Shown one piece after another: positions 12,087-32,000 of a DNA stretch of 32,000 bases (the first letter of the stretch is position 1; each line of letters opens with the position of its first letter). The notes beneath the pieces are model-generated. The model did not search any database, was not told where the DNA came from, and saw only the letters and a list, made by a program, of their open reading frames with translations. The DNA is from Methanocaldococcus jannaschii DSM 2661 (GTDB taxonomy: Archaea; AGJL01; Methanococci; Methanococcales; Methanocaldococcaceae), in the NCBI RefSeq assembly GCF_000091665.1, contig NC_000909.1, forward strand, positions 291,996 through 323,995, written 5' to 3'. A program made the position numbers and the translations under genes.

Positions 12087-12316
12087 ATGATTTAACAGCC
12101 TAACAGAGCTTTTTTGATATAGTCCAGTATTAAACTAATGTTATTTTAAACTTATACTCTAACAAAATTTTAGAGGACTATGATTTTTTAAGTTGTGCAT
12201 AACTGGACTAAAATTTGATACGGTAAGATATTGATGAATTTGAAGATAAAAATATAATTGCTTATAAAAAATATGAAAGTGAAACCCCCCGCAACCCTCC
12301 GAAACCATTGTCAATT

Positions 12317-12757
12317 TTAAAGGTCAATGTCATCAGCCCCCTCTTTATCTTCAGTAAGTTGCAATAGCTCCTTCATCTCTCTTATGGCCATAACTAAATT
12401 CCTACCAGCAACTTCTTTTTCCCTCGCTGTTGCCTTTGGATTTTCCAAATCTTTTTTTGCGGTTTTAATCATTGTAAATAAACCTTCCAAAGCCAATCCA
12501 AAATTATTCGCAATCTCCTTATACATTTTTGAGTAAATTTCGGTAGTTTCTTCTTCTATTGCTTCAAGTAGCTGAGGCTTTACATGGTTTTGCATGTGCC
12601 TTAAAATCGCACTGTATGAGATGTCTTCGTTATACTTTTCTTTTAAATATTTTGATATTTTTTTAGCTCCCCAGCCCTGGAAATATAATGCTTCTATCTC
12701 AGCCCTGTGTGGAGAGTTGCAGACTTTACATAATTTATTATTTGTATTATTTGGCAT
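12317..12757 (-). CDS. Zn-finger/HTH DNA-binding protein; candidate small terminase subunit
   Basis: 146 aa. CKVC...(HTH-like [25 protein letters not shown])...RHMQNH gives a C-x2-C ... H-x3-H arrangement around an HTH, a layout I associate with phage small-terminase or DNA-recognition proteins. It is the last gene of the packaging operon. Function is uncertain. Confidence 0.4.
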
Positions 12758-12758
12758 T

Positions 12759-14609
12759 TTAATCCCTCACAGGTGTTATTGTGCATCTACAACCGTATCC
12801 TAATGGTGGCACTAATTCAGGTCTTTCAGCAGGTACAAAGATGAGCCCATGCAGTTTTCTATGGCTTGGTCTAACTCTTTCATCTTTCATTGTGACATAT
12901 ATTACCTTGTCATTCCAGAACCTTCTCGCTCTTGTCAGATTATAGGTTTTGTTCATCTCCTCACGAGCCCTCATCTGCAATCTTGAACCCTTAACATCTT
13001 TTGCAACTTTTTTAAGATTCTTTGCAATTTCTTCTTCACCAAGTCCTTTTTGAATTCCCTCTGTAAGAACATCAAGGAACTGTTGGCTATATGATGAATA
13101 TATGTTGTAGAATGCCTGTTCCCAATGTTGTTTTAGTATATCAATAGTTTGCTGGTCTAAGTCATCATATATCTTCAATGAATTGAGTGTAGGGGCTACG
13201 TAGTCAAGGAAGAACATATCCACTTCTTCTCGAGTGAATTCCCTTAATAATTCATCCCAATCTTGCATAAGTTCGTTATATCCAAGCCTTTCATACGTTT
13301 CAAGTATCCAATTTACAAAATTTTCCATTGATTTTTTGCCGAACTTATCTCCCACTTTTTCTAATTTGCTGATTATTTTTTCCAAACTTTTACGCTTTTT
13401 TTCTAATAATTTTTGTTTTTCTTCATCTGCGTATTCTAAACCTCCTTTACCCTCTTTTGCCATTTTCAATAGCTTCTCAACTTCTTTTTCAGTTAAATCA
13501 GGATATGCCGCAAGTATTTCTCCAAATTCATTGCTTGGGAAGATTCTTTCAATCAATGCACTGAAGTCATATTTGGCTACCTGTTCTTGTGCCTTTAATT
13601 CTGCAACCATTTTTGCTTTTTGCAACATATTAATTTCCCAGTCAGGGTCTGGATTCGCAAATTTAACCCAGATGCCTTTGTATCCCATTTTTTCTAACTG
13701 GTCTGCAATCCATCTTTCAATTTCCTGCTGATACCCTTGAACAATTCTTAATATGTTCCTATCTACAGTCCTTGATGTTGTGAGCTCCTGCCCAGATGCT
13801 TTTACAATACTAATTGAAGTCCCCAATCCCATGAATATGGCACTGTCATAGTAATACAGCATTGTTTCTATCAAATCAGTTGGGATGTCTTTTCCTATGC
13901 TTATTGTTTCAAATTTTACTTCATCAGGAGTTGCAGGAATATATACTCTGGTTCTATTTTGGTGATTTGATAGTGCCTTTTTTATTATCTCTCCTGCTTT
14001 AGTGTTTTGAGTAATCCCTATAATTGTTGGGATTAGGGTTTTCTGAACCATGAGTGGCAATACTTTTAAAGCAAGTGTGTTTTTTTGGTCTGCAATCTCT
14101 TGGATTGTTTCATGTATTGGTATTGGATTGTAATATACTCCCAAATACTTTTCATCATAAAATTCAACATCCGCAGGAAAGTGTTGTCTTAGCTCCATTG
14201 GTGCAATTACAACCCTAACATCCTCTTCTGTATCAACTTCCCACCATCTTTCGGCATTATTCCTTTTAATTGTGTATGTGATGCAATACTCATATCTTCC
14301 TTTTTGTGGATTCCAATGTTTCCTTTCCTTAAAGTTCATTGAATTCGGATTGATGTAATGCAATTTGTAGAGGTAGCATTTTCCTTTCAGTAAAAAATCA
14401 GAAAATGCTAATTGTAAGTCCCTTATGTGTCTATCAATCAGTCCTGAAATCTCATCAATTACATCTTTGGATAGTTGCTTCCCATCAATTGATACTATTG
14501 AGTATGGTGTAAAGATTTGAGTGAATAAGATTCTCAATGCCATATTTACAGCAGTATCTTTTGCTAAGTCAATACTAACAGTCTCCATTTGAATTTTATC
14601 ATCTTCCAT
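12759..14609 (-). CDS. Portal protein fused to a Mu F / SPP1 gp7-like head-morphogenesis domain
   Basis: 616 aa immediately downstream of the large terminase. The C-terminal [16 protein letters not shown]...[10 protein letters not shown] is the hallmark Mu F-family motif. The portal call for the N-terminal ~400 aa rests on size and position. GGTGA-N4-ATG start. Confidence 0.6.
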
Positions 14610-14618
14610 AGTATCACC

Positions 14619-30683: not shown

Positions 30684-30703
30684 AGAATCACCAAAAAAAG
30701 AGT

Positions 30704-31114
30704 TTAAAACTCTGTCAATTTTTTAACACCAACAACCCTTAAATCTTCCATGTGTTCTGGCTTGATGACAACACCAACCTCCCCATCCACAGTAATCACA
30801 GCAGGAAAATCTACATCATAATAACACTGCACATCTTTAATATTATATCCCATTGATTTTAATATTGTCAAAGCCGCATTTACCAAATCAGGAGAATACC
30901 TAACTCCATTTTCAGCCGCATCCATGCAAAACTCAGCAATAATCTTTGTCTTAGATTTCGTAGTCTCTGAATCATTAATATAACATTGGCACCTATTAAC
31001 CAGCAACCTTCTTAATTCAGAGTTCAACCTCACTATTCCAATTGTCCATTTCCCATTTACAACACCAGACTCTAAAACTTCCAACAACTTAGCCCTTATA
31101 TCAGAATTCTCCAT
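30704..31114 (-). CDS. Hypothetical protein
   Basis: The internal ATG at 31114 is preceded by GGAGGTGA ([11 protein letters not shown]...). No motif. Confidence 0.4.
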
Positions 31115-31183
31115 GATTTCACCTCCAAAAGTTTTGGGACTCATTTTTTCCACCATATCATCACCAAAAAAATTTTAAAAAAA

Positions 31184-31903
31184 TTAATAAGTGATAATCA
31201 CATACGACTTTCTCTTTTTAGCTTCAGCTATTACCATCTGCAAATACTTTGGCTCAATAATGTGCTTTAGTGCGTTCCTTATCGCCTTTGAAGCTAAGAC
31301 AGTATATTTAAACTCCTCTCCCATTCTACCAGGACTTACCCTTTCAGCAGTACCTACCATAACGATGTTTCTCTTCAAATCCCTGACCCTACACGTTGCT
31401 ATAATTTTTCCATTAACCTCTTGGAAAGTTGGGGGCTCTACCTCAATATTTCCCTGCATCCTCATTGCTTTAACAATTCCTGCCCATGAGAGAATTATCT
31501 TCTCCTTTCCTGTTTTTTTATCAGGATAAGTATATGCCAAAGGTAGATGCTCATTAGCTTCATCCAGTAACATTAAATCCTCATCCAACGAATCCATCTT
31601 TTCAATAACATCATCCAACGAATCAACCTTTTCAGCAGTTTTCTCTAAGACCACCATTGCATTGTTTGATGCCTTAACCTCAATACTATTCCCATTCTTA
31701 TTCATCCTCTCCTCCTCCCTAAGCTTTTTAAATTCATCCTTAAGCTCCAAGGTTTCTAACCATTTGACAAATGCCGCACTTTCATCAATCCAATTATTAT
31801 GCTCCTTTCTGATTTCTTCAACTTGCTTTTTAATCTCCTCAACTTCAATCTCTACACCATACACATTCTTATGAGCCTTTGCAGCTAACTCATACTTGCA
31901 CAT
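31184..31903 (-). CDS. Hypothetical protein with acidic coiled-coil N-half and globular C-half
   Basis: 239 aa, with GGAGGG upstream of the ATG. Contains a 30-nt in-frame tandem duplication. Function unknown. Confidence 0.45.
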   Translation of the reverse strand: MCKYELAAKAHKNVYGVEIEVEEIKKQVEEIRKEHNNWIDESAAFVKWLETLELKDEFKKLREEERMNKNGNSIEVKASNNAMVVLEKTAEKVDSLDDVIEKMDSLDEDLMLLDEANEHLPLAYTYPDKKTGKEKIILSWAGIVKAMRMQGNIEVEPPTFQEVNGKIIATCRVRDLKRNIVMVGTAERVSPGRMGEEFKYTVLASKAIRNALKHIIEPKYLQMVIAEAKKRKSYVIITY

Positions 31904-32000
31904 TCAAATCCCTCCGATTAACTTTCAACATGCCAAAATCCTTTTTCTCTCCCTCCAAAATCTGCCTCCTCAACCTTTTAAACAACTTTTTCCCAACCTT
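31890..32000 (-). CDS. 3' end of a minus-strand ORF truncated by the window edge
   Basis: 36 sense codons open from position 32000 down to the TGA at 31890-31892, overlapping the start of the next gene by 14 nt. Basic sequence (KVGKKLFKRLRRQILEGEKK...). Confidence 0.3.
   Translation of the reverse strand, partial: KVGKKLFKRLRRQILEGEKKDFGMLKVNRRDLNVQV

Follow-up and report, generated by a model that had tools for sequence, protein, structure and literature searches.

The window analysed here is a stretch of 32,000 nucleotides from the chromosome of Methanocaldococcus jannaschii DSM 2661 (contig NC_000909.1, positions 291,996 to 323,995 of the forward strand), and coordinates given below are positions within this stretch. 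Its single tRNA gene, an intact tRNA-Ser(UGA) at 11997-12086 on the plus strand, was detected by both ARAGORN and Rfam (RF00005, 53 bits). To the left of this gene lie host genes encoding spermidine synthase, AdoMet and arginine decarboxylases, formylmethanofuran:H4MPT formyltransferase, ribosomal protein S10 and EF-1alpha, together with a xanthine/uracil permease and a small NifB/FeMo-cofactor-like protein. To its right the gene density is high and the genes form two divergent operons, one leftward (12317-17699, minus strand) and one rightward (17809-30000, plus strand), followed by another minus-strand block. Positions 12031-32000 are, with high probability, the left two-thirds of a complete, chromosomally integrated genome of a temperate tailed virus of siphovirus type (Caudoviricetes) resembling MFTV1, a virus of Methanocaldococcus fervens. 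A preliminary description of the same DNA had proposed a provirus-like head-tail cluster beside the tRNA-Ser, with housekeeping genes up to that point. Both proposals hold, the former on the basis of profiles, predicted folds, attachment (att) repeats and empty sites in relatives.

The extent of the element is defined by a direct repeat. The left attachment site, attL, is a 65-bp core at 12031-12095 (plus strand) that comprises the 3' 56 nt of the tRNA gene plus ATGATTTAA and recurs exactly in three retrieved public loci (L018, L020 and L021). Coordinates beyond 32000 were extrapolated from public contigs reached via proteins encoded in the window, and on this scale an identical 65-bp copy, attR, is found at 42436-42500. 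The unit from attL to attR measures 30,405 bp and extends about 10.5 kb past the end of the window. The preliminary description had delimited the cluster as 12087-32000 and had pointed to a possible repeat of the tRNA-Ser 3' half downstream. The switch in gene content at the tRNA-Ser and the repeat are both borne out, while the start is relocated to the att core and the end to about 42500. The far right end of the element holds, some 150 bp before attR, the gene for a 330-aa tyrosine integrase (Phage_integrase) that is 100% identical to the integrase/recombinase of M. jannaschii DSM 2661, and past attR follow a 102-aa ORF and the genes for TopoVI-A, FtsZ, SecE, Spt5 and L11 (L021). Both junctions are crossed in the integrated configuration by MEGAHIT contigs assembled at k=127, attL in the long-k assemblies ERZ926311 (k127_13596), ERZ926301 and ERZ926320, and attR in ERZ926311 (k127_11606) and ERZ926301. 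The window is represented in dozens of public contigs at an identity of 99.97% or more. The G+C content of the provirus is 33.7% versus 31.5% in the flanks.

The corresponding chromosomal site is empty in related organisms. A scan of one genome per species with the exact 26-nt 3' end of the tRNA-Ser gene yielded nine Methanocaldococcus-type loci, a set that does not include M. jannaschii and M. fervens themselves, although this 26-nt sequence has to be present in both. The left flank, the tRNA and the TopoVI-A/FtsZ right flank are contiguous in Methanocaldococcus sp. 16A (L008) and in two metagenome-assembled genomes (MAGs; L009 and L012), and in Methanocaldococcus sp. 28A (L014) the tRNA is contiguous with the right flank; nothing was found between the tRNA-Ser and the TopoVI-A/FtsZ flank in these four relatives. 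The sequence that follows the tRNA in L009, 'atgatttaaaattccatttc', nearly matches the M. jannaschii flank beyond attR. Since the same tRNA-Ser site is unoccupied in four Methanocaldococcus genomes, the 30.4-kb block is a precise insertion, and the alignment with relatives that had been proposed as a check does show the block to be absent from this locus in sp. 16A, sp. 28A and the two MAGs. Direct att repeats, an integrase gene beside one of them and an unoccupied site in relatives, three of the features by which a tRNA-integrating provirus is recognised, are present. Evidently, a viral attP in which the last 56 nt of tRNA-Ser(UGA) are duplicated, together with 9 nt more, recombined with the host tRNA gene, leaving an intact tRNA at attL and the identical 65-bp repeat 30,405 bp downstream at attR.

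The same target is used by other mobile elements. In the MAG Methanocaldococcaceae M10 another element adjoins the same tRNA-Ser(UGA) (L015 1539-3472); its integrase region has about 71% DNA identity, and its orientation to the tRNA is opposite to that of the M. jannaschii provirus. Plasmids of the pT26-2 type in Methanococcales also integrate at tRNA-Ser(UGA), via related integrases. One may therefore ask if the M. jannaschii element is an integrated plasmid of this type, or an operon for an encapsulin, and not a virus; the genes that bear on this alternative are considered next.

The leftward operon encodes the packaging proteins. The large terminase subunit (549 aa, 14619-16268, minus strand) matches phrog_2 with an E-value of 5e-16 over residues 72-514, and its Walker A (IIGKGGGKD) and Walker B (VVADE) motifs are visible in the translation; sequence searches of Pfam, NCBIfam and PDB gave no match to this protein. 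The adjacent gene at 12759-14609 on the minus strand encodes a 616-aa protein whose C-terminus (residues 509-611) is a Mu F / SPP1 gp7-like head-morphogenesis domain (PF04233, E 5e-26) with the motif HRKLHG...GYGCRC. An AlphaFold2 (AF2) model of this protein built from 11 homologues (pLDDT 70, pTM 0.47) was searched with Foldseek, and all of the top 50 PDB matches were phage portals, aligned over about 400 columns, the best with an E-value of 7e-7; among them are the portals of G20c, P74-26, T4, HFTV1, SPP1 and Mu. Because the structural matches are to portals only and PF04233 is matched in addition, the protein is interpreted as a fusion of a portal (residues ~1-400) with a Mu F domain. The predicted fold and the Pfam match together support its identification as a portal, at the moderate confidence of the model. 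Ahead of the terminase gene in the operon, a neck1 / tail-completion protein of the HK97 gp10-like type (16265-16672, minus strand) matches phrog_26 (E 7e-14) and PF05069 (E 1e-6), and carries VHEFGS..IPARPF.

The rightward operon supplies the capsid and the tail. The 262-aa product of 19301-20089 (plus strand) is assigned as the major capsid protein on the strength of its HK97 fold. Its AF2 model, computed from a 10-sequence alignment, has a pLDDT of 87.6 and a pTM of 0.81, and Foldseek returned matches with a probability of 1.0 and TM-scores of 0.6-0.79 to encapsulins, the Pyrococcus furiosus virus-like particle and the HK97 and T1 capsids. The family is tiny: exhaustive HMMER searching of 1.84 billion cluster representatives recovered 10 relatives at E ≤ 1e-3, the alignment of the family lacks any conserved stretch, five of the ten family members match phrog_264 ('major head protein'), and in a word-indexed search of 5.8 billion proteins the sole match of the capsid protein was itself. 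The capsid and the portal were resolved by structure prediction alone, after uninformative sequence searches; profile searching, which the preliminary description had recommended for each ORF, directly supported the terminase. Neither outcome that this description had named as a refutation was obtained, since terminase, portal and capsid all find support and the block is neither common to all relatives nor without a tRNA-associated boundary. The tape measure protein (22263-24812, plus strand; 846 aa from an ATG or 849 aa from a GTG start) matches phrog_58 (E 1e-17) and seven other tape-measure families. Further along is a gp53-like tail-fibre tip of 151 aa (26595-27050, plus strand; PF21882, E 2.7e-19; phrog_1396, E 3e-17) that carries GLIMQWG...FPNKC. 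The terminase, the portal with Mu F domain, the gp10-like protein, the 846-aa tape measure and the fibre tip had all been named from the letters alone, and all motifs quoted at that stage are present in the translations.

An HK97-fold capsid, a portal, a large terminase and tail genes for tape measure, neck and fibre proteins are the hallmarks of Caudoviricetes, and all are found within this element. The viral nature of the capsid protein is established by its gene context, and not by the fold alone. It is true that encapsulins are the best fold matches of the capsid protein and that pT26-2-type plasmids share the integration site and related integrases. Nevertheless, terminase, portal, neck, tape measure and fibre-tip genes stand in caudoviral order, and this order is that of MFTV1. 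An integrated plasmid or an encapsulin operon is consequently an extremely improbable reading, which the terminase, portal and tape-measure genes already refute.

MFTV1 is an isolated temperate siphovirus produced by a lysogen of M. fervens, its particles, with heads of about 50 nm and flexible tails of about 150 nm, have been seen, and it is classified in the Fervensviridae. Its output is reported to change with copper. The statement that tailed viruses of hyperthermophilic methanogens are barely characterised was in this respect overstated. The two genomes are similar in size (31.2 kb in MFTV1 versus 30.4 kb) and have the same gene order; 35 of the 46 ORFs of the M. jannaschii element have MFTV1 homologues in the same order, which align nearly end to end. 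Since these ORFs align essentially over their full length, the M. jannaschii provirus is without obvious pseudogenes. The earlier impression of a complete-looking module with all ORFs intact is in agreement with this, except that the window holds only the left two-thirds of the element. The MFTV1 provirus in M. fervens (L017) occupies the same tRNA in the same orientation, and in the MFTV1 genome itself the integrase gene adjoins the same fragment of tRNA-Ser. The integrases of the two elements are 95% identical, as is the 146-aa DNA-binding protein; the tape measure is 93% identical and the tail genes 71-94%, while amino acid identity drops to 54% for the portal, 47% for the terminase, 37% for the capsid protein and 56% for the MCM helicase of the replication module that both genomes possess. 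MFTV1 has been observed as particles, whereas the M. jannaschii element is known from its genes alone.

At the DNA level the two genomes align over only about 55% of their length, with an identity of about 45% of bases genome-wide. The criteria usually applied to Caudoviricetes by the International Committee on Taxonomy of Viruses (ICTV) are genome-wide nucleotide identities of about 70% for a genus and about 95% for a species. With about 45% of bases identical, the element belongs to another species than MFTV1 and, by the 70% rule, to another genus, in the same family; the set of orthologs and the gene order common to both place it in the Fervensviridae. These comparisons, together with the repeats and the profile and fold matches, demonstrate the integration of the M. 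jannaschii provirus at exact junctions, the identities of its hallmark genes and its relationship to MFTV1.

The similarity to MFTV1 is unevenly distributed along the genome. The head and packaging genes (12759-20089) are 37-54% identical to those of MFTV1, versus 71-94% for the tail genes (20093-24812). The reverse is seen in an uncultured 9.1-kb fragment from IMG/VR (UViG_3300028817_000028; L041), which has the same order of head and tail genes as the M. jannaschii element. In terminase (86%) and neck protein (79%) this fragment is nearer to the M. jannaschii element than MFTV1 is, and its tape measure and capsid protein are 43% and 35% identical. Since the similarity patterns of L041 and MFTV1 are opposite, modules recombine among lineages. 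With the HK97-like bacterial siphoviruses and the haloarchaeal HFTV1, the element has in common the HK97-fold capsid, the 12-mer-type portal fold, the terminase, the tape measure and a tRNA-targeted tyrosine integrase. It differs from them in that its capsid has no sequence-level similarity to theirs, its portal is fused to Mu F, its terminase and portal genes are divergent from the capsid and tail genes, it has an archaeal MCM, and its host is a hyperthermophilic methanogen.

Intact head and tail genes in a strain that has long been cultured might also point to a domesticated particle system, resembling a gene transfer agent or a tailocin, that the host has kept. The element nevertheless has its own integrase, att sites, MCM module and regulators, the locus is empty in four relatives, and the close relative MFTV1 is a true virus and packages a 31-kb genome of its own. 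Domestication of this kind is thus very improbable.

The right arm of the provirus begins within the window with leftward small accessory or early genes (from 30052 to 32000 and on, minus strand) of partial MFTV1 homology, one of which encodes a 105-aa product of the Pfam family MJ0349; another product of the element is assigned to the Pfam family MJ0330_N. Beyond the window follow small ORFs, HTH regulators, a SecB-like cassette, DUF2080, the MCM helicase, DUF2540 and the 330-aa tyrosine integrase, and an RNase H-fold 3'-5' exonuclease-like gene is also present in this arm. The SecB-like cassette consists of three tightly spaced minus-strand genes for proteins of 213, 128 and 155 aa (L018 2649-4155, extrapolated 33942-35448). 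The first protein matches PADLOC PD-T4-9_A (E 2e-12) and, weakly, an ADP-ribosyltransferase family in Pfam. For the third protein, matches to PD-T4-9_C (E 2e-23) and to SecB (E 5e-11) were obtained. In Escherichia coli PD-T4-9 corresponds to CmdTAC, a system of toxin, antitoxin and chaperone directed against phages, and the paper describing CmdTAC does not mention archaea. The three-gene insertion is absent from MFTV1.

Two paralogous convergent pairs of small genes (about 75 + 42 aa) were also observed in the right arm, at L018 2010-2365 and 5025-5384 (extrapolated 33303-33658 and 36318-36677). Both pairs match a single MFTV1 locus at 22303-22652, and they flank a 2.6-kb stretch with the TAC-like cassette, as though this had landed between duplicates. 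Gene callers differ on the strand of the 73-aa ORF in the second copy.

Some public data have the gene order expected of an excised element. In Logan contigs assembled at k=31 the integrase gene, the 65-bp core and the gene for the 146-aa protein are joined, which is the order of attP (SRR4245580_176, SRR4245587_128 and ERR1254308_398); the core lies at L018 11143-11207, at L019 5573-5637 and in a third contig (L042). Contig SRR4245580_176 is 30,430 nt long, approximately one full circle, and closes on itself by arithmetic on the fetched ranges. These contigs were at first read as evidence of excision, a reading that was then downgraded. They are probably assembly artefacts, because the core, at 65 bp, exceeds k=31 and the very AT-rich host arms could be clipped as graph tips, and because twelve other Logan contigs end at the att core and long-k assemblies show attL and attR. 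For run ERR1254308 the Logan contig has the attP order and the k=127 assembly has attL and attR, and two further long-k assemblies contain integrated junctions only. The contigs of PRJEB12287, at least, derive from the Shakya mock community, which combines 49 bacteria with 10 archaea.

The provirus would still be able to excise, replicate via its own MCM, package its genome by means of terminase and portal, and release virions like MFTV1. Activity is suggested by the intact genes, the identical att copies and the kinship to an active virus. That the provirus is still active, excises as a 30.4-kb circle and gives low levels of virions in ordinary cultures, and that the contigs in attP order are real, is nevertheless rather doubtful. 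It is possible, though not probable, that the provirus is cryptic, that is, an intact-looking passenger of the type strain that no longer excises or is infectious. The three long-k assemblies from the mock community, which includes M. jannaschii, have integrated junctions only, no report of M. jannaschii particles was found in the searchable literature, and the toxin-antitoxin-chaperone cassette could stabilise a provirus in this condition. Against a loss of function speak the ORFs, which align full-length with those of the active MFTV1, an integrase 95% identical to that of MFTV1 and att copies identical over 65 bp, and the absence of the element from close relatives suggests that it was acquired recently.

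Several observations weigh against the interpretation of the locus as a complete temperate virus genome. Encapsulins rank first in the fold search with the capsid protein, and this fold alone is not proof of a viral capsid. The portal model is of moderate confidence only (pLDDT 70, pTM 0.47). The assignments of protease, tail tube, connectors and chaperone, as well as that of the small terminase, are without significant profile support. Finally, attP-type junctions are confined to the k=31 Logan contigs, and long-k assemblies, one of them of the same run, contain attL and attR only.

The remaining genes of the leftward operon are small. The 146-aa protein encoded at 12317-12757 (minus strand), for which sub-threshold HTH matches were obtained, is a candidate small terminase or regulator. 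Upstream of the neck gene, two small ORFs of 110 and 132 aa (16677-17422, minus strand), with 77% and 57% amino acid identity to MFTV1, were without match in profile searches. The operon starts at the divergent control region with a Cro/CI-type HTH regulator (17409-17699, minus strand) that has weak matches to PF13443 and PF21716 and matches to phrog_9425 and phrog_4268 ('transcriptional repressor').

The head-tail operon opens with a 102-aa coiled-coil protein (17809-18117, plus strand) that gave coiled-coil-type matches only and is 81% identical to its MFTV1 counterpart over residues 4-70. The following gene (18181-18924, plus strand) encodes a 247-aa protein in which a probable prohead serine protease (N-terminal ~120 aa) is fused to a coiled-coil scaffold. 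In three homologues D15, H40 and S89 are invariant and the C-terminal PPSGxG tail is conserved; the MFTV1 homologue has an insert of about 110 aa. All three match PF05929 (Phage_GPO) weakly, the best with an E-value of 0.0017, below the Pfam cut-off, and no match to PF04586 (S78) was found even at E ≤ 10, nor any match in PDB or NCBIfam. From these sequence features the 247-aa protein looks like a protease-scaffold fusion of the P2 gpO type. An S78-like protease with a His...Ser pair had been proposed, and the pair is indeed conserved as H40 and S89. The S78 (HK97 gp4-like) family itself was rejected, in the absence of a PF04586 match and with a weak PF05929 match instead. The 119-aa head accessory protein encoded next (18934-19293, plus strand; phrog_673, E 4e-5; 37% MFTV1 identity) is a candidate scaffold or decoration protein.

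Between the capsid and tape-measure genes, the connectors, tail tube and chaperone are named by position only. Two small ORFs of 104 and 107 aa (20093-20699, plus strand; 94% and 87% MFTV1 identity) presumably encode head-tail connectors or adaptors, and the 234-aa protein encoded at 20699-21403 (plus strand; 71% identity) is presumed to be the tail tube protein. They are followed at 21413-22291 (plus strand) by two genes for which profile searches gave no match; one product, of 120 aa, is acidic, may be a tail chaperone and has 92% identity to its MFTV1 counterpart, and the other, of 123 aa, is hydrophobic and has 90% identity. Of the capsid, tail tube and chaperone genes named in the preliminary description, the capsid is upheld by its HK97 fold, whereas tube and chaperone are placed by gene order only, and the second ORF then labelled a chaperone (21920-22291) encodes a hydrophobic, membrane-type protein. 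It is curious that this 123-aa ORF, which is strongly hydrophobic with apparently several transmembrane helices, overlaps the tape-measure start where a tail chaperone (G/GT) is expected. Searches of Pfam, PHROGs, NCBIfam and PDB sequences returned nothing significant for the capsid, protease, tube, connectors and the 795-aa tail protein described below.

Two distal-tail ORFs of 180 and 317 aa (24822-26269, plus strand) gave no profile matches and are 40% and 59% identical to MFTV1. The cassette at 26279-27050 (plus strand), composed of a 101-aa ORF and the fibre tip, is an addition relative to MFTV1, in which it has no match. Tail-end proteins of 183 and 795 aa (27068-30000, plus strand) were compared with MFTV1 by tblastn and matched no profile. 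In the latter the N-terminal 418 aa differ from MFTV1, and since this part has no MFTV1 counterpart the protein is a candidate receptor-binding protein. The 26279-27050 cassette and the N-terminal part of the 795-aa protein (27613-28870) are likely determinants of host range.

The element is a complete and apparently intact MFTV1-like provirus of M. jannaschii that is new, or at least newly delimited. It does not constitute a new category, since tailed viruses infecting Methanocaldococcus and Methanococcales proviruses have both been described before; papers that cite Krupovic et al. 2010 credit that study with a report of tailed proviruses in Methanococcales. The searchable literature contained no mention of MJ0329-MJ0348, MJ0363 or MJ0367, or of a named M. 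jannaschii provirus. The provirus of about 30 kb spans roughly MJ0328-MJ0367, and it has probably been catalogued already. M. jannaschii is an archaeal reference organism with a genetic system, and about 30 kb of its chromosome is a complete MFTV1-type genome, whose att sites are now located to the exact base and whose gene map is annotated from fold and profile evidence. The annotation of the reference genome benefits from this, since most provirus genes still bear the label 'hypothetical'. Integration vectors could be built on the tRNA-Ser att site and the integrase, and the mapped element offers a start for work on virus-host relations at 85 °C. The comparison with MFTV1 also illustrates module exchange, with tail and integrase nearly identical and the head at 37-54%. 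If the provirus is active, a genetically tractable hyperthermophilic methanogen gains a temperate virus of its own, equipped with a CmdTAC-like defence cassette. The leads of greater interest are this cassette of the right arm and the possibility that the provirus excises spontaneously in the type strain.

Some minor differences exist between public sequences of the element. Many independent present-day assemblies have A, not G, at 29805 in the 795-aa gene, and some are off by one base in T9, T6 or A7 runs (25403-25411, 26718-26723 and 19386-19392), affecting tail, fibre-tip or capsid genes. These differences may be sequencing or assembly noise, or heterogeneity of stocks. Differences in gene size among public contigs were considered and found not to be real, as they arise from start-codon calling, one SNP and homopolymer indels. 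In the host flank two unusual genes were observed. The product of 9171-10097, of 308 aa, combines EF-Tu domain 2 with the C-terminal domain of eIF2-gamma and lacks a GTPase domain, and the 263-aa ORF at 1583-2374 has HTH and LAGLIDADG_3 domains.

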